From: a virus
Lineage: Duplodnaviria; Caudoviricetes
Virus record (IMG/VR): IMGVR_UViG_3300017747_003223
Span: 1 to 59,330 of that record
Length of the DNA stretch: 59,330 nucleotides
Reading direction: 5' to 3' (one strand)
The translations under genes were made by a program, and so were the position numbers. The stretch's first letter is position 1. Every line of letters starts with the position of its first letter. Positions 3,499-54,045 of this stretch are shown piece by piece. The notes under the pieces are model-generated. The model worked only from the letters and a program-made list of their open reading frames with translations, ran no database searches and had not been told where the DNA came from.

Positions 3499-4836
3499 GT
3501 GGCCGCTCCCCCAGGCTTTCGCTTCACCCCCACCACCAATCCTGCAACCGCCCGTAAGAAGTGCCTTCGCTTCTTCAGTCTTCTTCGTCAGCGTTGTCTC
3601 ATGCCACCCGACATTGACAACTCCCTTCAGGGCTTCCGCTCCAACATATTGAGGGAGGCAACCCGCCTCAAACAGGGCCTTGCTCAACTCAACTTCATCC
3701 TTCGCAATCCCAACCCCGACATTGCCACCCTTCGCTCGCTCGAACACAGCGTCAACAACATCCGTTCCCGTTTGTCGGGCACCTCCAACAGCCTCATTCA
3801 GAACACCGGCAGCTTTGCTCTACGGCTCACAGACAAACGATCATCCGCCGACAATTTCCGCATCATCCCCCTTCGCCTCACCAGCGATATCCTTTTGGAG
3901 TTGGATGCCTTTGTCCGCGTCTACCCCATTCAGGTCACCAAGACCCGCATCATCATCAAGCTGCCGGACATAGTTATTGATGGAGTCCCCTTGGGGGACT
4001 ACTACTTCACACTGTCCATGCCCGAAGAAGCCACCCGGCCTAACCTTCCCGGCTACTCAGCCTGCAACTACACCATCTTCCGTGATCCCAAGCTGCCTGC
4101 CCTCTGGGGTAACCGAGACCACCCCCACATCTATGACCGTCCTTGTTGGGGCCATGCCAGTGCCCCCCTTACTGCGGCCATCAGTCGTGGTGATCTCTTT
4201 GCCATCCATGATGTTTGCCGAGCCTATCTCACCACCTACAACGAGGACTCGCCTTACATCCCCCTCTACTTGTTGGGCCTTCCCGACGTTGCCAATGCTG
4301 TTCGTGCCGGTACCATCCCTCATCGTGGTAACCGCTACTACCAGCAGAACGGCATCCCATTCGTCATTCCCTCCTTCACCAAGAAGTTACGGATAGTGGG
4401 GGAGAACGGTAGATCTGAGCCCCGCCTCCAATGCTCGCGGGACGATAAGTGGGTCTGCATTGCACGGGACTGCTGGGATATCTTCCCCCCTCCCCGCTAC
4501 ACCCCCGCCATATTGCGGGCCCTCTCTACCAACGTAGCCATCATCGACTCTCCCGGCCTCATTCCCCACCTTCAGGCTCTTTATCCGGGTCGCTACGTCC
4601 CCGCCTACGTCAACTTCACTAATCGTCCCCTTACCGTCACCACCTTCCTCCCCCGTCCGCATATGGGTAGCATCCCCAGCAACATCATCATGACTATGCG
4701 AAGTATGCGTCACGTTCACGGGTCCCTCAACTCTCTCGAACCCATCATGTCATTGGGACCCTCTGATCGTCGCCTCGTCCAGCTCCCGCGTCGTTCTCGT
4801 CGCTCCCGTTACACCACCACGGATAACCCATCATGA
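3499..4836 (+). CDS. prokaryotic E2-like ubiquitin-conjugating enzyme with N-terminal helical and C-terminal extensions
   Basis: HPHIYDRPCWG matches the E2 HPxV/I...C catalytic motif, followed by ...YNEDSPY; GTG start with AAAGGAGGT SD; lies between Ubl and JAB. Confidence 0.78.
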   Translation: MAAPPGFRFTPTTNPATARKKCLRFFSLLRQRCLMPPDIDNSLQGFRSNILREATRLKQGLAQLNFILRNPNPDIATLRSLEHSVNNIRSRLSGTSNSLIQNTGSFALRLTDKRSSADNFRIIPLRLTSDILLELDAFVRVYPIQVTKTRIIIKLPDIVIDGVPLGDYYFTLSMPEEATRPNLPGYSACNYTIFRDPKLPALWGNRDHPHIYDRPCWGHASAPLTAAISRGDLFAIHDVCRAYLTTYNEDSPYIPLYLLGLPDVANAVRAGTIPHRGNRYYQQNGIPFVIPSFTKKLRIVGENGRSEPRLQCSRDDKWVCIARDCWDIFPPPRYTPAILRALSTNVAIIDSPGLIPHLQALYPGRYVPAYVNFTNRPLTVTTFLPRPHMGSIPSNIIMTMRSMRHVHGSLNSLEPIMSLGPSDRRLVQLPRRSRRSRYTTTDNPS

Positions 4837-6020
4837 CCCCCAAACCCCTTCGCGTCACCATCTCTCCCTTGGCAGAGGCCAAGATGCGTTCAGCCATCTC
4901 TCATGCCTCACCTAACGAGGTGGGCGGCCTCCTCATCTTCCATCCCACCGAACCTTTCTTGATAACGGATATCTTCTTCCCCAAGCAGGAAGTGAAGCCA
5001 ACCTATGTCGAGTTCGATGACAACAGCATCGCCGACTGGTTCGAGTACAACGTCCTCGACCTGAACAACCGCCCTCCGCGTGAGTGGCGCTACGGCTGGT
5101 GGCACCACCACCCCTTCAACAACTCACAACCTTCAGGGAAGGACGAGGATACCCATACTCGCCACTTCACCCACGCCAACATCCCCTGGTCCATCATGAT
5201 GATTACCTGCGATGGGGCGGGAGACTTCTGCCGCCTCCGGGTTAACGTGGACGGCGGTGCCTACGTCGATATCAACCCCACTGTCATCTATGGTCGCCAT
5301 CGCATCGACCTCTTCCCCGGTGAAGAGAACTTTCTCGACGAGCTTGAGAAGTTGGTCGTCGCCACCCCCCTTCCCTCTGCCTCCGTCACCCTCCACAACA
5401 ACTGCTCCCTCTACCGCAGCTATGGGGACTACGTTGAGGCCATCGCACGGGAGGAGCGGGAACAGGGCAAAGGGGAAACGGGGGTCGTCATCGTGGGTCC
5501 CCAACCAGCGGTCACCCCTCCGGCAACAGCAGCATTCGGTGAGGGCCCCGTCAACGTCATTCGGTCGATGCAGCCGCGTAAGAAGGCCGTAGAGTCCGCT
5601 AAGACCCTCAACTACGACATTGGCCTTCGCTCCCCCCTCAACGAGAAGGAAGCCGCCGCCTTCGCTGACGTTCTCATCCGCATCGTGCCCCAAGTCCACC
5701 CCGACCTCACCCTCTACCTGTTCTACGTCTGGCAGGCCCTCGCCCCCGAGGACCGCATCACCGTCAAGAACATCCTCAACACCACCACCTCGCCCACCAT
5801 CTCCAACTTGTCTACTTGGTTTTATCCGTTCGTCATCCAATACGCCGACACCCCGAAGGAGCTTCGCAAGCGTGCAGCTTTCTTCCAGCGTATCTCCTCA
5901 GATCGGATGCCCTCATGCGTGCAACGCGCTACACCGATATCGTCAACCCCCTCCGCTACTCCCAACTCCGAGTCCTCATCGTCGGCGTCGGTGCCATCGG
6001 GCACCCCCTCGCCAGCATGA
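4833..6020 (+). CDS. JAB/MPN+ (JAMM) metalloprotease, deubiquitinase-like
   Basis: EVGG ... WWHHHPFNNSQPSGKD is the canonical ExnHxHx7SxxD motif; ATGA coupling to E2. Confidence 0.9.
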   Translation: MTPKPLRVTISPLAEAKMRSAISHASPNEVGGLLIFHPTEPFLITDIFFPKQEVKPTYVEFDDNSIADWFEYNVLDLNNRPPREWRYGWWHHHPFNNSQPSGKDEDTHTRHFTHANIPWSIMMITCDGAGDFCRLRVNVDGGAYVDINPTVIYGRHRIDLFPGEENFLDELEKLVVATPLPSASVTLHNNCSLYRSYGDYVEAIAREEREQGKGETGVVIVGPQPAVTPPATAAFGEGPVNVIRSMQPRKKAVESAKTLNYDIGLRSPLNEKEAAAFADVLIRIVPQVHPDLTLYLFYVWQALAPEDRITVKNILNTTTSPTISNLSTWFYPFVIQYADTPKELRKRAAFFQRISSDRMPSCVQRATPISSTPSATPNSESSSSASVPSGTPSPA

Positions 6021-8046: not shown

Positions 8047-8358
8047 ATGCCCAGCGAATCCACGCTCATTGTCAACCGTCCCCCCATCGGCTCCACCATC
8101 TTCTCCCTGCCTGTCGAGATGGGACCCAAGGGTCTCGCCAGCCTCCACACCGACTTCCTCCCCATCGCCACCGAGATGATCTCCCACCTTCATGGCCCAT
8201 CATGCGGGGTAGCCCAAGTCATGATCCGCGTGGAAGTCAACATCATGGTATACAGGAAGCCGGATCATTTGAGTGAGGATGATACCGACGAATCCGGTCC
8301 CTCCGTCTCCGCTCCGGGCCCCACTTGGGACAACCCCATCACCCCATCATCGAGATAA
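8047..8358 (+). CDS. hypothetical protein
   Basis: 103 aa ORF in operon. Confidence 0.55.
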   Translation: MPSESTLIVNRPPIGSTIFSLPVEMGPKGLASLHTDFLPIATEMISHLHGPSCGVAQVMIRVEVNIMVYRKPDHLSEDDTDESGPSVSAPGPTWDNPITPSSR

Positions 8359-8363
8359 CCTCC

Positions 8364-9092
8364 ATGCTCCTCCCACTTTTCATCTCACACAAGGAGTGCA
8401 AACGCTGTGACCTCCATACACACGTTAAGTCTGTTGGGATGCCTGCTCGCCGTGTTCATTACTCTCTTGTATCTTCTCAAGATACGCCCGCTATTCTCAT
8501 CGTTGGACAAAACCCCGGCCAGCGAGAAGACGAAGCCGGAGAGTGCTTCGTCGGACCCACTGGACGCCTCCTCCATGCCGCCTATATCGGACAGCGAGTT
8601 GAGAAACCTGGACACCCTCTTGATGGAACAGAGGTTGGAGCCGGACTCTGGAAACGAGCAACTATTTTCCTATCTAATGTGGCTCGCTGTGGCACATGGT
8701 CAGGGCTCGAACCCTCTAACTCTCAATACGCCCTCTGTGCCCCCTACCTCCTTGAAGACATTCGCCTCATCCTTCCCACCTGTTCCCGGCTTATACTTCT
8801 TCTATGTGGTGCCCCCGCCATCTTCCATACCTACAAAGCATTAACAGGGACGGGCATGAAGGCGAAGCAAGCCTTCGACACATCCGGCGAGTACCTTCCC
8901 TTCCACGATACCTCCATCCAAATCTTCTCCACCTACCATCCAGCATTCGTTATTCGTAAGAACGCCATGCTGGAAGCCGTCATCAACCACCTCCAACTCC
9001 TCCTCGATTCCCTTGACGGCATCAGTGCCACCCCCTCCTCCCCTCACCTCATCCCCCCCTGCTACCCTTCCTCCATCATCAGGGGACTCTAG
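8364..9092 (+). CDS. uracil-DNA glycosylase family 4-like (4Fe-4S)
   Basis: CKRCDLH, VGQNPG..E...G..FVG..G..L, NVARC...C and TYHPA motifs. Confidence 0.88.
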   Translation: MLLPLFISHKECKRCDLHTHVKSVGMPARRVHYSLVSSQDTPAILIVGQNPGQREDEAGECFVGPTGRLLHAAYIGQRVEKPGHPLDGTEVGAGLWKRATIFLSNVARCGTWSGLEPSNSQYALCAPYLLEDIRLILPTCSRLILLLCGAPAIFHTYKALTGTGMKAKQAFDTSGEYLPFHDTSIQIFSTYHPAFVIRKNAMLEAVINHLQLLLDSLDGISATPSSPHLIPPCYPSSIIRGL

Positions 9093-9102
9093 GAGTATCC
9101 TC

Positions 9103-9459
9103 ATGGAAGTGCGTTCAGTTAAAGATGGTACCTACGACAAGAACAACGTCAAGCATTTCTACTGTGGGCGGCGTACCCGTCGTGACTACACCTACTTCGG
9201 ATTGGGTAACCCCCACGTTGTCACCTCTCACGGTGAAGAGTGCCCTCAGTGCCACCTCGAACACAGCCTAGGGCAGGCCATCGAAGCCTTCCGCACGGAC
9301 CTCTTCGGCGGCAGCCTCCCCTCCCATGCCCGCCTCATCGCCCTATTACCAGAGGATGCCATCCTCTACTGTTGGTGCCGTCCCCGTGCCTGCCACTGCG
9401 ACATTATCATCGACTACTGGAACCACGTACATGTCAAACCCCCCTCCCCCCCTGTCTGA
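9103..9459 (+). CDS. DUF4326-like protein
   Basis: YCGR...GNP...AIEAFR...LYCWCRPRACHCDII pattern; AGGAG SD. Confidence 0.8.
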   Translation: MEVRSVKDGTYDKNNVKHFYCGRRTRRDYTYFGLGNPHVVTSHGEECPQCHLEHSLGQAIEAFRTDLFGGSLPSHARLIALLPEDAILYCWCRPRACHCDIIIDYWNHVHVKPPSPPV

Positions 9460-10732
9460 GGACCAGCAAGTAGCATTCGATGCCATCAAGAAGTGGTTCC
9501 TTGACACCGCCGATCCCGTCTTCCGTCTTGGCGGGCTAGCTGGTACGGGCAAGACCACCCTCATCCGCCACCTCTGCAACTTCTTAGAGCCCTCCTACAA
9601 CATCACCGTAGCCTCCTTCACAGGCAAAGCAGTTCACGTATTGCGGACCAAGGGCATGACCGAGGCTACCACCCTCCACAACTTCCTCTTCATCGCAACC
9701 AAGGACCACAACGAGGTCAAGTACACCTTCATTCCTCGGCCCGCCCACGAGATCCATCAGACAGCCCTGCTCATCGTAGACGAAGCCTCCATGGTGGACA
9801 CCTTCCTATGGAACACCATCCGCTCCTACAAGCACCTCCGCGTCCTATGCGTGGGGGACCATGGCCAGCTTGAACCCGTGGGTGACAACCCCCGCCTCAT
9901 GGACATGCCCGACGTTCGCTTGGAGAAGATCCACCGTCAAGCCGAGCATAACCCCATCATCCGCTTCGCCCATCACCTTCGAGAGGGTAACACCCCTCCA
10001 TACGGCGAGATCGGTAACAACCTCCGCATCTGCAAACGGAGTGACAGCCCCCTCTTCGATGCCTCATGGCAACTCATCTGTGCCTTCAATCCCACTAGAC
10101 ATAAGGTGAATGCTATTTGTAGGCAGACAGCAGGCTATACCGGGCTCATCAACATCGGTGAGAAGGTCATCTGCCTCCGCAACAATCCCCATCACAAGAT
10201 CTTCAACGGCATGATGGGTATCATTACAGACCTTTACTGGACCCGCTACCGTGGAAACGACCCCATTCCCGTCATCACCATCCTTACAGATGGGGGCGAA
10301 GTTCGTGGCCCCATCCCCTGCATCCCCTCCCTCTTCGGCACCACCCCCGAGAAGGATGTTCCTCTTCGCCCCCCTTACCATCCCGATTACAAGGTCCATG
10401 AGTTTGGCCAGTTCGACTACGGCTACTGCATCACCGGCCACAAGGCTCAGGGCTCAGAGTGGGAACGTGTAGTCGTCATCGAAGAACTCAGTCGTCTTTG
10501 GAACGCCGCCCGTTGGCGTTACACCGTATCCACCCGTGCCTCTAACCAGTTATTGTACCTCACCGAGAAAGGTAGTGCCACATGGCCAAGCGTCCTTCCC
10601 CCAAGCGCTCCCCCTCCAAGAGCGACCCCATCCCCCGATTCGGTCGCCACTTCTACATCACCACCGACGTTGCCGACGACGGAGGCTTCACCACCTACTA
10701 CAAGCACCGAACCACCAACGTCATCCACCTGA
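9431..10732 (+). CDS. SF1B RecD2/Dda-like DNA helicase
   Basis: GLAGTGKTT, IVDEASM, GDHGQLEPV, IHRQ, TGHKAQGSEW and YTVSTRA motifs. Confidence 0.92.
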   Translation: MSNPPPPLSEDQQVAFDAIKKWFLDTADPVFRLGGLAGTGKTTLIRHLCNFLEPSYNITVASFTGKAVHVLRTKGMTEATTLHNFLFIATKDHNEVKYTFIPRPAHEIHQTALLIVDEASMVDTFLWNTIRSYKHLRVLCVGDHGQLEPVGDNPRLMDMPDVRLEKIHRQAEHNPIIRFAHHLREGNTPPYGEIGNNLRICKRSDSPLFDASWQLICAFNPTRHKVNAICRQTAGYTGLINIGEKVICLRNNPHHKIFNGMMGIITDLYWTRYRGNDPIPVITILTDGGEVRGPIPCIPSLFGTTPEKDVPLRPPYHPDYKVHEFGQFDYGYCITGHKAQGSEWERVVVIEELSRLWNAARWRYTVSTRASNQLLYLTEKGSATWPSVLPPSAPPPRATPSPDSVATSTSPPTLPTTEASPPTTSTEPPTSST

Positions 10733-10884
10733 CCGAGAAGGTCCGTGCCGATGGGTCGTGGGTCGCCTCCTTCAACATGTGCGAGCTGTACGGCGTTCCC
10801 ATCGGAGCCTCCGTCCTCATCGACAGCGACTTCAACGCCTCCGAGATCTTCAAGTCCTGGCTCCTGGTTTTGCAGAAGTCCTGA
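10582..10884 (+). CDS. hypothetical protein
   Basis: Frame with normal composition overlapping the low-complexity tail of the helicase. Confidence 0.6.
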   Translation: MAKRPSPKRSPSKSDPIPRFGRHFYITTDVADDGGFTTYYKHRTTNVIHLTEKVRADGSWVASFNMCELYGVPIGASVLIDSDFNASEIFKSWLLVLQKS

Positions 10885-10977: not shown

Positions 10978-11466
10978 ATGCCCGCATCATCCAAGCCCGT
11001 TTCACCTGCCGGTCCTCGCGTCAAATGCACCGCCCCCGTCCATCGTGGTGCCGCCCTCTTCATCTCCTTCCTCGGTGATTACGATCTCGTCATCTCCACT
11101 GCGGGGGGCCTCGGCGTCCCCTCCCACCTTCGCGGCAGCGATAAGAGGGACTTCGAGGCCTTCGCCAAATACTTGTGGTGGCACATCCACGACATGGCCA
11201 AGCTCCCCATCTCCCCTCCCTCCTCCGAACCCGAGGGCCCCTCCTCCCGCACCATCCTCTCCGCCGAAGAAGAAGAAGAAGCCATCGAAGAGAGTGATGA
11301 AGAGGGTGGTGAAGAGGGGGACAGTGACGAGACCGGCGACCCCGACGAAGCCCCAGAAGCGGGCGTGATCCCTCCTCCTCGGGTGATGCCTCGGCCCCAG
11401 CGAGTCATCCTCGACGACCCCGAGAACGAACTCCCCCCTCCTCAACCTCAACACGATCCCTTTTGA
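10978..11466 (+). CDS. hypothetical protein with acidic tract
   Basis: GGAG SD; EEEEEAIEESDEEGGEEGDSDE. Confidence 0.65.
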   Translation: MPASSKPVSPAGPRVKCTAPVHRGAALFISFLGDYDLVISTAGGLGVPSHLRGSDKRDFEAFAKYLWWHIHDMAKLPISPPSSEPEGPSSRTILSAEEEEEAIEESDEEGGEEGDSDETGDPDEAPEAGVIPPPRVMPRPQRVILDDPENELPPPQPQHDPF

Positions 11467-11588
11467 CCTTTTACCTTTCCAGCAGCAGATTCTCAATGAG
11501 GCCTACGCACGTTTCGAGCGACGTATGCACCGTGACTTCCAAGGTGAATGGTTAGCCTTCCCCTCTTTCCCCTCCTTAGAACCTCCCC

Positions 11589-14120
11589 ATGCTGACAACC
11601 TCCCTCGACATTGAGACCTATGGTGCGTGCGAGGTGGATTGGTATGGCAACCCCCTCCCCAACCAGAAGTCCCCCAAGAAGCACGATGGTCGCTTCCACC
11701 CCATGCGATCCCTTTATACGGATCGCGTTCCTCTTTCATCCCTCATCCTTACTGCCTCTATTACTATCGTTTACGAAGACGGTGAACCATGCCTAACCTT
11801 ACCCTCCAAGACCTCAATCAAGTCTGCTCCACCATTATTAAGGCGGGACACACCGAGGTTGCCGATCCCGTCTGTCGAATCTACTGGACGGAGTGTGCCT
11901 TCGTATTCAGGGACCTCCTTGCCCAACGTATGGGATGCCCAACGAATATCGCGGCTAACACCGGGTCCTACGATGGTGTTCCTGATGCACTTGGCGGACC
12001 ACCGAGCGATGCTGGCGGAGTGGCTCCGTCAATCATCGACAGTGTTAGGCATGAACCTCATGTTCGACTTCCCCTACCTGAGAGTCCTGCCTGAGTTCCG
12101 ATTTTTACTTACCCCATCCAACCAGCGATACCTCATCGACCTCTCATGGGTCAACTTCTTACACTCAGAGCTTCGTACTGCGAAGTCCTTGAAGGCTTTA
12201 GGTCCTGTTACCCGCAAGTTCGCTTACAGCGACGACAACTCCTTGAAGAAGCGTCGCTTCCCCTCTCCTCAGTGGGTGGACAAGGTTACTGGTGCCTCCC
12301 TCATCTCCTATCAGGCCCAAGACCCTCACAACACCGTCCTCGCCATTGCCGAGTTTGCTCGCCGCATCATTCGTGATTGGGGCCCCGACACCCCCAAGCT
12401 CTCTCCCTATTCCATTCGCTTCTTTACCGACAACATGTGGTCCTGCATCCGTATGCTTGAAGCAGGCATCCCCATGTCTTACAGCCGCCTTTATTCGTTG
12501 TTGGATAGCTGTAACAAGACCAAAGAAGAGACCTTCGCCCTTGCCAAATCACAGGGCCTCCTCCTTGGCGGTAACAAGAGCGAGAAGTCCAAATCCACAT
12601 TCATTCAGTCTGTGGTACAGGAGATAGATAACCCATGCGTCATCGCCGACCCGCCCCCTACGCCCTCTTCTGCTACGGTTGCCTCATCATCGCCTTCGCC
12701 GGTGCCATCAACCTCACCATCACGGCCTGGGCAACCTACCTCCATTCTGTTGCATCCTCTTCTCAAGAAGACCGACAAGAAGCGGCAAGTCTCGTGGGCA
12801 GATCAGAACCGCCTCTTGTTCCGTCTCGCCCTTCCTCCCTCCCACCCCCTCCAATCCCAGCTCAAGCTCATTGACCGTTACTCGGGGGCCTGCAAGCTCA
12901 TCGGCTCATACATTACCCCCTTGTTGTTTCATAAAGCTAACGATGTGGATGATCGTTGCTCCGCCCTCATTCCCCATGAGGAACCACCACCATGCCCTTC
13001 CGATACCAACTTCCAGTTAGTTCTTTCCTCTACACCATCTCCATCTTCACCATCTCTATCGCCTACAAGTCCTTCACTTCCCTCCCCCTCCTCCTCATCG
13101 CCACCCTCGTCCTCTGGGCCACCTTCTTCTTCTGGGCCCGCGAAGTCCTACACGAAGCCCGCCGTGCAACAGCGGCTCGGTATCAGTGATCCCGACATAG
13201 GCCTCGGCTTCCCTGCCATCTACATCATCCCCTCTTATTCCTCTGACTCCTCAGATGATGAGGGGGGCCAGCAACAAGTTCGCCTCTCCTTCAAGAAGCC
13301 CGCCGCACAGACCTTTCCCAAGCTCGTCAAGGCCTGTTACAAGTCTCGCTTCGGTGCCTCCGGTCACATCCGCTCCTACGATATCAAGCAAGCCGAGTTG
13401 GCGAGTGCGGCTGTCCTCTCGGGCGAACAGACCATCATCGACGCCTTCCTCCACAACCTTGACCTACACACCATCCGTGCCGAGCAAGTGTTCGGCATCC
13501 CCATGCTCATTGCTAAGTACGGCCCTAACTATGCGAAGGACCCTTACTTCAAAGAACTAGAGCGGCAGTGCTGCAAGCATGGTAACTTCACCGACCTCAA
13601 CTGGGGCTCCGCTGAAACCCTCCGCATCACCATCCTTAAGAAGGGCAAGGCCGACATCCCCATCGCCTTTTGCAGGGACGTAGTAGCCTCTAGATCTAAG
13701 GTCCGTCCTCAGTTGTTCAGGTGGCAGAACCAATGGCTAGAAGAAACGATGCGGACCCACCGCTGCATCCTCCCTTATACGGGCCACTCTCGTTCCTTCA
13801 CCGGCGAGATCAAGGGTAACGATGCCTGCGAAGCCATCAACTTCCCCATTCAAGCCATCGCCGCTACCGCCGAACTCAGCGTCCAAGCCTACATCCACGA
13901 TCATTTACCCTCCATCAATGATCCCTCCTGCCCATGCTACATGTTCCTCAATACCTATGACGCATTGTGGTTCGACACATTGAACAGCTACGCACCCACA
14001 TTGGATCGTATCGTGGAGGATGCGTATGAGTTCGTCCGCACTAAGGGTTACTGGTACATGATGTGCGACCACTTTGGCCATAGCGTCCCCCTATTATACG
14101 ATGCCTCCATCCACACATAG
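11589..14120 (+). CDS. polA: family A DNA polymerase with 3'-5' exonuclease domain
   Basis: ExoI LDIET, ExoII NLMFD, ExoIII YQAQD; motif A YDIKQAE, DLH, motif B R..CK..NF, AINFPIQ, motif C variant NTYDA. Confidence 0.9.
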   Translation: MLTTSLDIETYGACEVDWYGNPLPNQKSPKKHDGRFHPMRSLYTDRVPLSSLILTASITIVYEDGEPCLTLPSKTSIKSAPPLLRRDTPRLPIPSVESTGRSVPSYSGTSLPNVWDAQRISRLTPGPTMVFLMHLADHRAMLAEWLRQSSTVLGMNLMFDFPYLRVLPEFRFLLTPSNQRYLIDLSWVNFLHSELRTAKSLKALGPVTRKFAYSDDNSLKKRRFPSPQWVDKVTGASLISYQAQDPHNTVLAIAEFARRIIRDWGPDTPKLSPYSIRFFTDNMWSCIRMLEAGIPMSYSRLYSLLDSCNKTKEETFALAKSQGLLLGGNKSEKSKSTFIQSVVQEIDNPCVIADPPPTPSSATVASSSPSPVPSTSPSRPGQPTSILLHPLLKKTDKKRQVSWADQNRLLFRLALPPSHPLQSQLKLIDRYSGACKLIGSYITPLLFHKANDVDDRCSALIPHEEPPPCPSDTNFQLVLSSTPSPSSPSLSPTSPSLPSPSSSSPPSSSGPPSSSGPAKSYTKPAVQQRLGISDPDIGLGFPAIYIIPSYSSDSSDDEGGQQQVRLSFKKPAAQTFPKLVKACYKSRFGASGHIRSYDIKQAELASAAVLSGEQTIIDAFLHNLDLHTIRAEQVFGIPMLIAKYGPNYAKDPYFKELERQCCKHGNFTDLNWGSAETLRITILKKGKADIPIAFCRDVVASRSKVRPQLFRWQNQWLEETMRTHRCILPYTGHSRSFTGEIKGNDACEAINFPIQAIAATAELSVQAYIHDHLPSINDPSCPCYMFLNTYDALWFDTLNSYAPTLDRIVEDAYEFVRTKGYWYMMCDHFGHSVPLLYDASIHT
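11789..12094 (+). CDS. candidate overprinted ORF inside polA
   Basis: Starts at CCATG where the pol frame turns S/P-rich; N-terminal half reads as normal helical sequence. Confidence 0.4.
   Translation: MPNLTLQDLNQVCSTIIKAGHTEVADPVCRIYWTECAFVFRDLLAQRMGCPTNIAANTGSYDGVPDALGGPPSDAGGVAPSIIDSVRHEPHVRLPLPESPA
12635..12874 (+). CDS. candidate overprinted single-TM protein inside polA
   Basis: MRHRRP plus hydrophobic YALFCYGCLIIAFAGAINLTITAWATYL, coincident with a pol S/P insertion. Confidence 0.5.
   Translation: MRHRRPAPYALFCYGCLIIAFAGAINLTITAWATYLHSVASSSQEDRQEAASLVGRSEPPLVPSRPSSLPPPPIPAQAH
12992..13189 (+). CDS. candidate overprinted two-TM (holin-like) protein inside polA
   Basis: Two hydrophobic segments plus a basic tail, co-extensive with the longest S/P insertion in pol. 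Confidence 0.55.
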   Translation: MPFRYQLPVSSFLYTISIFTISIAYKSFTSLPLLLIATLVLWATFFFWAREVLHEARRATAARYQ

Positions 14121-14131
14121 GAGCCTCATCA

Positions 14132-14380
14132 ATGCCTCCCTCCATCACCGTCAACCTCAACCCCCCTCCCATCAAACCCCCACCTCCTCGTCCCGAGTTA
14201 TATGGGGTGGTGTATTGGAATCCCGACTACTCCCTCTGGATGTTCAGTGCATCCTACACCGAGATAGACAAAGCTAACCAGCTTGCCATCGCCAAGCGGG
14301 GTTGCTCACCCCAAGTTATCACTATTCCCTCCGAGCATCCATTGACTTCTCCCCCCTCTTCATCTACCCTGTTAGGATGA
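14132..14380 (+). CDS. hypothetical protein
   Basis: AGGAG SD; 82 aa. Confidence 0.55.
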   Translation: MPPSITVNLNPPPIKPPPPRPELYGVVYWNPDYSLWMFSASYTEIDKANQLAIAKRGCSPQVITIPSEHPLTSPPSSSTLLG

Positions 14381-51755: not shown

Positions 51756-52361
51756 TCAATGCTGGGTCATCATCCCATTCCAAGTGTACGGGTTACCCTC
51801 TACGGGTTGCCGTTGGGTCACCACACCCGGCGTCAGCACTTGGGGCACCCTAGGTCCGAGAGACGATGGAGAAGTCTGCATCGCACGCCGCTTAGCTGTC
51901 CCCCACGCAGCATTGATCTTTTCCGCACTCTGCACTTTTGCGGCCTCGTTAATGGGAGACCTGTTCGGCGTAGTAGTGCCCGTACTTCCTCCTAACATTG
52001 AGGGGTCGTATCCCATCCTTCGAGAGTATCCTCCCTCCCCCCTAGTAATAGGGCCAAGGGGCATGGGTCTATCGGCGGCACTCAGGTCACCCTCCGCTAG
52101 CCCCTTCACCAACTTCCGTGCCTCCTCGATGGGTAACCGCTTACCGATAGCAATGTTCCTCGCTACCCTCTCGGATGCCTGCCCCCTCGTATGCCCTTGC
52201 CCCATCAGCCTATCCACGTTGCCGATGATGGCCTGTTCCCGCACCAGCTCACTGACGATCTGGTTCCTGCTCTTGCCCTCCGACTTCTTCTTGTCCACCT
52301 TCTTCATTGCGGACTTCCGCTTCCACTCGTCCTTCTTCGCCTTGTTGACCACCATGTTCAA
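51756..52361 (-). CDS. basic hypothetical protein
   Basis: K/R-rich N-terminus; AAGGAG SD; first gene of the minus arm. Confidence 0.6.
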   Translation of the reverse strand: MNMVVNKAKKDEWKRKSAMKKVDKKKSEGKSRNQIVSELVREQAIIGNVDRLMGQGHTRGQASERVARNIAIGKRLPIEEARKLVKGLAEGDLSAADRPMPLGPITRGEGGYSRRMGYDPSMLGGSTGTTTPNRSPINEAAKVQSAEKINAAWGTAKRRAMQTSPSSLGPRVPQVLTPGVVTQRQPVEGNPYTWNGMMTQH

Positions 52362-52424
52362 TCTCCTTCAAATGGATCTCGCTGTAGCTTCCCTGTAACC
52401 CCCACTTATCGAAAGGCCCCAAAC

Positions 52425-53879
52425 ATGACACCCCGTAAGATCGGCATCGCCACCAATCCCCTCGATGATACTAGCCCCATGGGTATCGCTTTGTCCATCC
52501 TCCAAGATGGGTTTTCTACTCCGGGGGGCTTGCAGGGCCTCTACGAACACCGAGCCGATTACTGGATGTGGACGGGTACCCCCGCCCAATGGTGCGTCAC
52601 TACTGAGCAGTTCATTGAGGACTGTATCATCAAGTGGATCTCGCAGGCTAAGTGCTGGACCACCATCAAGGACCAGCGGCTCCCCGTACCCCTCAAGTAT
52701 AACACGGCCCTCATCAAGTCGGTGCTACGGTGCTTGCAGGCCGTCATCCGCCTCCAAGCTAAGAACCTCCCCTGCTGGCTTGGGGGACCCCATACCGAGA
52801 TCAATCCCGAGTTGTGTATCGGGTTCCAGAACGTCATCCTCGATGTGGCTGCCTCCGCCAAGACCGGCGGGTTCGTCACCTACAACCGCACCGAGCACTA
52901 TCTGGATTGTCAGACACTGCCAGTAGACTTTGATATGGCTGCTACGTGTCCCACCCTGTTACGGTGTTGTGATGATTGGGGCGGGAATGATCCGATGTGG
53001 CCCGTTCTCATTCAGCGGGAGTTGGGGCTGGGGTGTATGGCCTATCGGGAGTTTGCTAAGTGGTTCATGCACTACGGAGTAGCCCGTGGCGGTAAGGGCA
53101 CCATCGAGCGTATCAGAAGGGCCCTCGTCGGGGACTATGCCTACGTGGGTGCGAGGATGAGTGCCCTCGGTAAGCAGTTCGGCCTCCACAAGCTACAGCG
53201 TGCTAGGGTGTTCGTCATCTCCGAAGTTACCGAGTTGGATAAGTACCTAGCCGAAGAATCCTCGGGATTGGTGAAGAACATCCTTGGGCGTGATCCTATT
53301 GATCTGGATAGGAAGCATGTCGAAGCTCTTGAGAATGTGGTGAGCGGGGCGATGGTCGTAATGATGGGGAATGAGTTGCCCAATCTGCCCAATAGGGGGA
53401 GGGGCTTGTCAAGTAAGATGGTGCCCGTTAACTTTGATGTGTCCTTTGAGGGGAAGGAGGACTATGGGTTGGAGGGTAAGTTGATGGGTGAATTGACGGG
53501 GATTGCCCTCTGGATAGCTCAAGGGGCCATTTCGGTGATTGAGGAGGCTGATCCCCGGAAGAAGTTCCCCCTGACGGATGGGGCTATACACGCTTTGGAG
53601 AAGTATCATATCCTGAATAACCCGGCTGATTCGTTCCTTCTGTGGTCTTTTACGAAGGTTAGCGGGAATCATGTGGACTCGACGATCGTGTATAATCGGT
53701 ATGAGCAGTTCTGCAAGGAGATGAAAATGAGGCCCCAACCCCGTAATCAGTTCAATAACTGGCTGGAAGCGAATAATTCGTGGGGTGTGACGAAGCACAG
53801 GGAGGCCGGTGGAGGACGGAATGGGTTCCGGGGGATTGGCTTGAAGGCCCAACCCGGCTTTGATGAGCGGCTGATCTGA
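52425..53879 (+). CDS. D5/P4-family SF3 helicase (no primase domain seen)
   Basis: Walker A GVARGGKGT, Walker B VISE, motif C GNELP; D5_N-like region; C-terminal winged helix; GAAAGG SD. Confidence 0.85.
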   Translation: MTPRKIGIATNPLDDTSPMGIALSILQDGFSTPGGLQGLYEHRADYWMWTGTPAQWCVTTEQFIEDCIIKWISQAKCWTTIKDQRLPVPLKYNTALIKSVLRCLQAVIRLQAKNLPCWLGGPHTEINPELCIGFQNVILDVAASAKTGGFVTYNRTEHYLDCQTLPVDFDMAATCPTLLRCCDDWGGNDPMWPVLIQRELGLGCMAYREFAKWFMHYGVARGGKGTIERIRRALVGDYAYVGARMSALGKQFGLHKLQRARVFVISEVTELDKYLAEESSGLVKNILGRDPIDLDRKHVEALENVVSGAMVVMMGNELPNLPNRGRGLSSKMVPVNFDVSFEGKEDYGLEGKLMGELTGIALWIAQGAISVIEEADPRKKFPLTDGAIHALEKYHILNNPADSFLLWSFTKVSGNHVDSTIVYNRYEQFCKEMKMRPQPRNQFNNWLEANNSWGVTKHREAGGGRNGFRGIGLKAQPGFDERLI

Positions 53880-53967
53880 TGTTAGTGACTGTTCGGTCTT
53901 TGAAAGGAGGCTGAACGGCTTGTGAGGGGGAAGGGTGTGAGGGGTGGAAAGGCAAAAGGCGGTCCCT

Positions 53968-54045
53968 ATATACGGGTATTAAATAAAAAAAGATAAGAGA
54001 AGTATATGAACTCAGTACATTCAGACAGCAACAAGTACCTAACAA
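53968..54045 (+). other. AT-rich tract (candidate unwinding element / genome-end region)
   Basis: TATTAAATAAAAAAAGATAAGAGAAGTATATGAA in an otherwise GC-rich genome, right after the helicase. Confidence 0.4.

Follow-up and report, generated by a model that had tools for sequence, protein, structure and literature searches.

Three small open reading frames (ORFs) lie inside the DNA polymerase gene of a phage from an uncultivated lineage, in another frame of the same strand, and as judged from sequence they are probably real genes. The window – the whole stretch of DNA that we analyzed – is a complete virus record of 59,330 base pairs (IMG/VR record IMGVR_UViG_3300017747_003223), and the host gene encodes a family-A polymerase. 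Each of the three ORFs starts at the edge of a Ser/Pro-rich insertion and occupies frame +2 within a polymerase loop. We favor the nested-gene reading because the window ORFs share all features of the nested genes that we identified in relatives, except for a direct test of selection. An earlier note on this DNA had proposed that loops of the polymerase house entire small genes while its frame stays unbroken, and this proposal is now supported by codon usage, resampling, recurrence of the architecture in relatives and the substitution patterns of those relatives.

Table 1. Positions in the window of the polymerase gene, its three insertions and the three nested ORFs
Feature	Position	Strand	Description
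Family-A DNA polymerase gene, 3'-5' exonuclease part	11589..14120	+	Host gene; 843 amino acids; read through all three insertions
Insertion 1	11775..11942	+	Polymerase residues ~63-118; Ser/Pro-rich in polymerase frame; between exonuclease motifs I and II
Insertion 2	12630..12737	+	Polymerase residues ~348-383; Ser/Pro-rich in polymerase frame
Insertion 3	12972..13181	+	Polymerase residues ~462-531; poly-Ser/Pro in polymerase frame
Nested ORF1 (putative gene)	11789..12094	+	Frame +2; 101 amino acids; soluble, acidic, net charge -5
Nested ORF2 (putative gene)	12635..12874	+	Frame +2; 79 amino acids; basic N-terminus, one membrane-type hydrophobic segment (residues ~9-33)
Nested ORF3 (putative gene)	12992..13189	+	Frame +2; 65 amino acids; two hydrophobic segments, basic C-terminal tail, net charge +4

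Insertions in the polymerase open with ATGs in a second frame

We identified 85 homologs of the window polymerase, and the invariant exonuclease and polymerase residues are kept; the Pfam domain DNA_pol_A (PF00476) matches residues 565-812. Alignment with 19 homologs mapped the boundaries of three extra segments that are absent from most of these proteins. In an AlphaFold2 model of the polymerase, which has a mean predicted local distance difference test score (pLDDT) of 80, long stretches with pLDDT <50 fall at residues 72-112, 354-382 and 466-524, and otherwise only residues 553-555 score so low. Alignment and model thus agree with the earlier note, which had described three Ser/Pro-rich insertions. 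The polymerase frame is stop-free through all three, and no direct or inverted repeats flank them. Within motif A (residues ~598-607), the Arg of the usual ‘ELR’ is an Ala in the window polymerase and in homolog P0005, with the remaining invariants kept.

The insertions come and go among homologs. All three sites hold a Ser/Pro-rich segment in P0001, the closest homolog, and only the third does in P0003 and P0004; among the eight closest homologs the sites are filled in varying combinations, with none filled in P0002.

Each insertion of the window opens with CCATGC, read as Pro-Cys by the polymerase, and this hexamer places an ATG at 11789, 12635 and 12992, just as the earlier note had pointed out. 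All three ATGs are in frame +2 (equivalent to -1), starting on the third base of a polymerase codon. The entire polymerase gene contains only seven frame +2 ATGs, three of them at insertion starts, and a frame +2 stop lies 3-12 nucleotides 5' of each of these three. The stop is a TGA at 11783 for ORF1 (within GGTGA at 11781-11785), a TAA at 12629 for ORF2 and a TGA at 12977 for ORF3. Shine-Dalgarno-like motifs stand 9-11 nucleotides before the ATGs of ORF2 (AGGAG, 12619-12623) and ORF3 (GAGGA, 12978-12982). No sigma-70-like promoter was found in 11300-14300. In P0001, a Cys begins each of its three insertions, which is what the codon pair NNA-TGY, creating a frame +2 ATG, would give.

The predicted products differ in character. 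ORF1 has no hydrophobic segment on the Kyte-Doolittle scale, and only its first ~51 residues come from insertion 1, the remainder lying over conserved polymerase sequence. For ORF2, 19-residue windows scoring at least 1.6 start at residues 7-16 (maximum 2.06), in keeping with the basic N-terminus and single transmembrane segment that the earlier note had read from it. ORF3 had been described as a protein with two transmembrane segments and a basic tail that ends about where the insertion does. Its tail and its end hold (the stop at 13189 coincides with the 3' edge of insertion 3), and its two hydrophobic segments are unequal, with a strong one at residues ~29-49 and a weaker one at ~9-25 (maximum 2.13).

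Codon usage within the insertions belongs to frame +2

The plus strand of the window is C-rich all along, with a GC skew of about -0.1 to -0.35. Genes on this strand have C at ~0.45-0.55 of third codon positions, and minus-strand genes have G at ~0.4 of theirs, which indicates that the bias is a strand-wide mutational one and not translational. Free third positions on the plus strand are therefore expected to drift to C.

The insertions show the opposite in the polymerase frame. Across their 162 codons, the fraction of C at positions 1/2/3 is 0.33/0.59/0.28, versus 0.26/0.26/0.48 across the 681 codons of the polymerase core. CCA makes up 14/38 of Pro codons in the insertions, 2/40 in the core and 44/409 in the phage's other genes. 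Among four-fold Ser/Pro/Thr/Ala codons, those ending in C number 28/95 in the insertions versus 880/1481 in other genes (Fisher p = 1.3e-8).

To locate this signal, we calculated a sliding codon-usage log-likelihood in 25-codon windows, trained on the phage's other plus-strand genes. Within the polymerase gene, frame +2 beats the polymerase frame in three islands only, at 11769-~11990, 12624-~12775 and 12969-~13180; in the first of these, 11769 marks the first window won by frame +2 and the signal fades by ~11990. Within the islands, frame +2 scores 0.19, 0.44 and 0.36 bits per codon, within the span of the phage's real genes (0.13-0.44), while the polymerase frame scores -0.21 to -0.42 and the antisense frames 0.05 or less. 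These per-codon scores were obtained with one training gene out of frame; the resampling described below used a corrected training set.

One explanation for such a signal is that the insertions are ordinary low-complexity Ser/Pro linkers whose alternative frame is merely coding-like. The genetic code lends it some plausibility, as TCN and CCN codons read out of frame give open, hydrophobic frames automatically. We modeled this case by synonymous resampling of the polymerase codons for the same linker peptides, with 20,000 resamples per ORF. The observed frame +2 score was reached in 0/20,000 resamples for every one of the three (z = 4.7, 4.4 and 4.1 for ORF1, ORF2 and ORF3). Under the same null, an ATG at the observed place has a probability of ~0.08 per ORF and ~5e-4 for the three jointly, and frame +2 is open with probabilities of 0.18, 0.53 and 0.15. 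The depletion of third-position C in the insertions likewise runs against an ordinary linker. Together with two observations from relatives given below, these results largely refute this explanation, to which we attach hardly any probability.

Converse resampling, which drew on codons of the nested proteins, left the polymerase frame open in 33%, 34% and 52% of cases and predicted a Ser+Pro+Thr+Ala fraction of 0.50-0.57 in that frame, compared with 0.48-0.74 observed. These values indicate that the Ser/Pro richness of the insertions is the out-of-frame reading of a gene rich in third-position C, as the earlier note had supposed, and that the polymerase can host such a gene at little cost.

The architecture recurs in related polymerase genes

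We next asked how widespread this arrangement is. A scan of viral contigs recovered 80 polymerase loci, and 87 with those from other sources; 78 encode full-length polymerases, of which 69 are non-redundant. The nine loci left out were cut by a contig end, partially matched or distant, and none was excluded for an internal stop. Insertions were counted if at least 15 amino acids long, and each locus's own polymerase core served as the codon reference.

Insertions cluster at four recurrent sites, at query residues ~72, 266, 349 and 467. Ser/Pro/Thr-rich insertions total 21, with 18 in relatives and three in the window. In 17 of the 18 from relatives (20/21 with the window), frame +2 outscores the other frames in codon usage, and an ATG-started frame +2 ORF is open through the insertion in 16 of the 18 (19/21 with the window). 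Relatives that keep the insertions thus mostly keep the ATG-started ORFs as well, an outcome in favor of the earlier note, which had named their loss as a finding that would count against it. ATG-started frame +1 ORFs open through the insertion number 0/18 in relatives and 0/21 with the window, which a purely compositional effect does not explain. Among the 33 other insertions, the polymerase frame is top-scoring in 27.

Many of the relatives' nested ORFs have their stop no more than a few bases from the insertion's 3' edge, and their products range from hydrophobic peptides of 27 amino acids to proteins of 124-140 amino acids with ordinary composition. A GGAG, GAGG or AGGA core is present 4-18 nucleotides 5' of 12 of the 21 nested ATGs, versus 9.2% of background positions. 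A membrane-type segment is found in 11 of the 21 ORFs, including all six at site 349. These six (in L018, L027, L028, L033, L040 and the window, 12635-12874) have one such segment each, although the relatives are distant and differ in base composition; mutual similarity is detectable only among the peptides of L027, L028, L033 and L040.

In a protein-only count across 83 homologs, Cys or Trp stands at the start of 34/57 insertions, versus ~35% expected. We do not rely on this figure, because the fast alignment used for it split long insertions.

None of the 21 nested ORFs interrupts the polymerase frame with a stop. By resampling, the chance of this is 0.004-0.58 for a single ORF and the log10 values sum to -18.8, which makes it evident that the polymerase is read through the nested ORFs. 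This bears directly on the possibility that the segments are removed from the product, as an intron, an intein or by translational bypass, with the nested ORFs as intron-type cargo. Introns and inteins are classically found in phage polymerase genes, intein domains occur in two relatives (P0074 and P0084), and the insertions are patchily present among close relatives. Against removal stands the polymerase frame that is open through every nested ORF, and the nested ORFs fill the insertions, leaving no space for an intron core. In addition, no Rfam family reaches threshold in 11300-14300 (best matches fall far below the gathering score), Pfam identifies no intein domain in the window polymerase (only DNA_pol_A), and the polymerase frame has neither an in-frame stop nor a slippery X_XXY_YYZ heptamer. 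We thus disfavor removal and consider it very unlikely.

In this family, fusion to a uracil-DNA glycosylase domain occurs in some polymerases, and the two just mentioned carry intein-type domains; the proteins concerned by one or the other are P0026, P0074, P0078, P0079, P0084 and P0085. Such fusions and inteins indicate that the polymerase gene is a frequent target of several kinds of insertion.

Nested frames of relatives are under purifying selection

Substitutions between related loci show purifying selection on the nested frame in relatives. The clearest pair, L107 and L108, differs at 72 of 2457 nucleotides. Nine of the differences fall within two nested ORFs. Eight of these hit position 2 of the polymerase codon, all nine change the polymerase and seven are synonymous for the nested proteins. 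One nested protein is identical over 90 amino acids in both loci while the polymerase frame changes four residues over it. The rest of the gene behaves in the opposite manner, with 39 of its 51 differences at position 3, 40 synonymous for the polymerase and three synonymous in frame +2. A chance frame +2 ORF in the polymerase core, which served as a control and is excluded from these 51, has 12 differences, of which ten are polymerase-synonymous, like the rest of the gene.

Other relatives agree. In six relatives of low GC content, variability peaks at polymerase position 2 (0.49-0.64 pairwise) across the insertion at site 72 and nowhere else, a pattern that no single-frame linker model predicts. 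For L070/L072, the nested frame has a ratio of nonsynonymous to synonymous substitution rates (dN/dS) of 0.12, compared with 0.88 for the polymerase frame. The order is reversed for L004/L005, a control insertion that is not Ser/Pro/Thr-rich, with 1.34 in the nested-type frame versus 0.11 in the polymerase frame. The pairs L033/L040 and L016/L059 show the same trend in weaker form. Frame +2 islands of codon usage and these dN/dS values are the per-frame measures by which the earlier note had suggested judging its proposal, and both support it.

Evidence against functional genes in the window

Several observations weigh against the nested-gene reading. The window ORFs are known from sequence, their status as genes being argued from composition and from analogy to relatives, and we found no close relative with DNA in which selection on them could be measured. 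A metagenome scan yielded seven loci, none of them close, and neither a scan of prokaryote genomes nor a viral scan by the window polymerase alone yielded any. One public DNA sequencing run covers the region as identical contigs without variants, and no RNA run is listed as containing it; contig gaps over insertions 1 and 3 were not counted as evidence. The relatives' insertions are not independent events, as several are sister sequences, and the nested peptides of the window have no similarity to relatives' peptides at the same sites. ORF1 lacks an upstream GGAG, GAGG or AGGA core. ORF1 and ORF2 extend 152 and 137 nucleotides past their insertions into conserved polymerase sequence, so that each product would end in a stretch of arbitrary sequence. 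Finally, Ser/Pro-rich polymerase codons leave frame +2 easily open (P = 0.15-0.53) and hydrophobic almost by construction. Because hydrophobicity is partly forced by the overlap, the transmembrane appearance of ORF2 and ORF3 proves little by itself.

Homology searches identified no homolog, family or paralog of the three ORFs. Pfam and PHROGs gave no family for any of them at E <= 0.01-0.1, and ORF3 matches no holin family in either database. A word-index search found nothing for ORF2 and ORF3, and a full HMMER search with ORF1 returned one marginal match (E = 9e-4) to its low-complexity tail, which we did not count. In the ESM Atlas, ORF1 had no usable match and ORF3 matched only non-specific clusters of small hydrophobic proteins (scores <=0.86). 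Nothing convincing came from tblastn of the three ORFs against the window and all relatives' loci, and searching ORF1 and ORF3 against the genomes of five complete relatives gave a single weak match (E 0.014).

Several of these points would fit relics – coding DNA inserted out of frame into tolerant loops, or nested genes since dead – with frame +2 untranslated and the linker alone mattering. Relics are consistent with the missing homologs, with selection evidence that comes from relatives and not from the window, with a frame that stays open easily and with ORFs that continue into conserved polymerase sequence. In a relic, however, unconstrained third positions of the polymerase would return to ~0.5 C under strand-wide drift, and the actual value is 0.28. 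The codon usage is fully native, the ATG is kept exactly at the 5' edge in all three cases despite the low joint chance of this, and the nested ORFs of relatives are under purifying selection. We accordingly regard relics as unlikely.

Predicted expression, origin and roles of the nested genes

If the window ORFs are genes, ribosomes on the polymerase frame would read straight through the insertions and so make disordered linkers of Ser/Pro, tolerated by the enzyme, and other ribosomes would start at the internal ATGs of the same mRNA. The predicted products are a soluble protein from ORF1, a single-pass membrane peptide from ORF2 and a membrane peptide with a basic tail from ORF3. In the +2 register, the wobble base of the nested codon would be the middle base of the polymerase codon. 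In a genome rich in third-position C this register yields Ser/Pro/Thr/Ala and few stops, which may be why frame +2 is tolerated; linker composition and stop avoidance would then cost the nested protein nothing.

The small genes probably came first and were inserted ready-made, which would make their reading in the polymerase frame the derived one. This preference follows from a criterion applied to overlapping genes (PMC8227390), by which the frame with genome-like codon usage is the older; in the insertions that frame is the nested one. The alternative, in which small ORFs were born by classical overprinting in pre-existing disordered loops, leads to the same architecture. It would account for the lack of relatives of all three ORFs, and Ser-rich loops provide hydrophobic open alternative frames for free, in line with the membrane-type segments in about half of the nested ORFs (11/21). 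Beyond the codon-usage criterion, insertion-free sister polymerases disagree with it: at equal distance, they have no loop at the site in which an ORF could have arisen. L059 and L016 (= L090/L091) have an insertion of 119-126 residues at site 467 that is missing in six sisters (L092, L094 and L096-L099) about equally distant, at ~71% identity to L059. The nested ORFs of this pair, at 124-129 amino acids, encode proteins of ordinary globular composition, again not what birth in a loop would suggest; the two proteins are 24% identical in polymerases that are 72% identical. A structure model of the L059 protein, with L016 as the only other row, was uninformative (pLDDT 55). Birth in place is thus improbable in our view, to about the same degree as relics.

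Extending the insertion of ready-made genes to the whole group, we propose a broader model that we hold to be about as likely true as false. In a widespread lineage of uncultivated phages of 50-60 kb, the polymerase gene would be a docking place for small ready-made genes, with four permissive loops and always the -1 register, and the cargo would be taken up, lost, exchanged and expressed by internal initiation along with the replication genes.

As to function, our guess, held with low confidence, is that the three are early-expressed accessory proteins produced together with those of replication, that two of them act at the membrane and that they serve host take-over or exclusion. A late holin is disfavored by the co-expression with a replication gene. 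Class II-type holins resemble ORF3, and only ORF3, in its size of 65 amino acids, two hydrophobic stretches and basic C-terminal tail. They differ in that ORF3 has no match to a holin family, would be made with a replication gene instead of the late genes and owes part of its hydrophobicity to the overlap; moreover, no endolysin was recognized among the 30 window ORFs that we scanned against PHROGs.

Comparison with characterized nested genes

Same-strand nested genes read in another frame by internal initiation are classical in phages, as in phiX174 (B in A and E in D) and lambda (Rz1 in Rz). Both frames of these pairs are functional and ordered, and the arrangement is usually viewed as de novo overprinting. 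The window differs in that its host frame forms an added disordered loop missing from insertion-free homologs. Inteins, group I introns and free-standing homing endonuclease genes in phage polymerases share with the window insertions their recurrent sites in a conserved replication gene and their patchy distribution. Unlike these elements, the window insertions leave the host frame stop-free, and we found in them no splicing domain, intron RNA family or nuclease domain. The nested ORFs of 12 relatives likewise have no convincing match to nuclease families, the sole nuclease-type match being a sub-threshold one to a PHROG RNase H (E 0.025).

Among known systems the nearest is the ShiLan domain, which is inserted in methylase genes of mycobacteriophages, is stop-free in the host frame and hides an ORF for an HNH endonuclease in another frame (PMC11855218). 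Both systems involve an insertion in a conserved phage gene with a stop-free host frame and a hidden ORF in the third frame. In ShiLan, the start of the ORF is close to the 5' edge of the insertion and its stop is at the 3' edge; in the window, all three ORFs start so, and ORF3 alone also ends at the 3' edge. A loop is predicted for the host-frame reading of both systems, and close relatives have the insertion patchily. The cargo differs, as the window products are 65-101 amino acids long and match no nuclease in Pfam or PHROGs. The window also has three insertions per gene, in an essential DNA polymerase; its starts are ATGs, with Shine-Dalgarno-like motifs for two of three, and two ORFs overrun the insertion. 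We found no evidence of homing for the window insertions, and the evidence for selection also differs between the two systems.

A second parallel is the hepatitis B virus polymerase, whose dispensable, disordered spacer overlaps the preS/S gene in another frame. Sliding codon-usage analysis there suggested that the small gene is ancestral and that the polymerase linker was overprinted (PMC8227390). In both cases the DNA of a polymerase linker encodes a second protein, and the small gene is inferred to be older. Hepatitis B virus, an animal virus that uses reverse transcription, has a single long overlap and an envelope gene that is essential, whereas the window has several short, variable, lineage-specific ORFs in the family-A polymerase of a double-stranded DNA phage. 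A literature search, with supplementary files outside its scope, found no description of nested genes in the loops of phage family-A polymerases.

Implications for hidden genes in phage genomes

Gene callers forbid nested genes on the same strand. Such ORFs are therefore invisible in every annotation, and the loops that contain them are filed as low-complexity linkers. If the nested-gene reading is correct, as many as three foreign genes are tolerated within the coding sequence of an essential replication enzyme, a rare way to pack extra genes into an essential one. Such nesting would cost little under strong third-position bias, which leaves the out-of-frame reading with few stops and much Ser/Pro/Thr. 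One could then look for hidden small genes, small membrane peptides among them, by way of Ser/Pro-rich insertions in phage proteins, and the system would be a natural one in which to study dual coding and internal initiation. It would extend ShiLan, the one published precedent in the sources available, from HNH endonucleases to non-nuclease cargo. If the docking model is also correct, insertion out of frame, so far known only from HNH elements, would have a general form free of endonucleases, and disordered low-complexity loops of phage enzymes could be the shadows of hidden genes.

Genome context and other overlaps in the window

Cultured phages are distant from the window, with polymerase fragments only 24-36% identical and no match for the terminase. 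Among the 30 ORFs scanned, PHROGs matches were few in total: a ribonucleotide reductase, large terminase, primase, Sak4-like protein, exonuclease and ERCC4-type nuclease.

We also scanned 58 ORFs across the genome by codon usage and identified 22 islands. The 19 outside the polymerase sit at ORF ends or in short putative ORFs. A RecD-like helicase (9326-10732) has a Ser/Pro/Thr tail of 50 amino acids (10577-10732) past the last of its Pfam domains. The tail results from reading the first 150 nucleotides of the next gene (10582-10884, ATG at 10582) out of frame, and frame +2 has a coding signature there. Similarly, the ORF at 4833-6020 has a Ser/Thr-rich C-terminus (5913-6014) over a frame +2 coding island with an ATG at ~5913, and the start of the ORF at 8860-9456 (8860-9078) is a Ser/Pro-rich out-of-frame reading of the end of 8325-9092.

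The GC skew of the plus strand is positive only at 53-54 kb (53001-54000), inside a primase-like gene (52191-53879). The C-richness of the strand may be due to replication-linked bias, base modification or something else.

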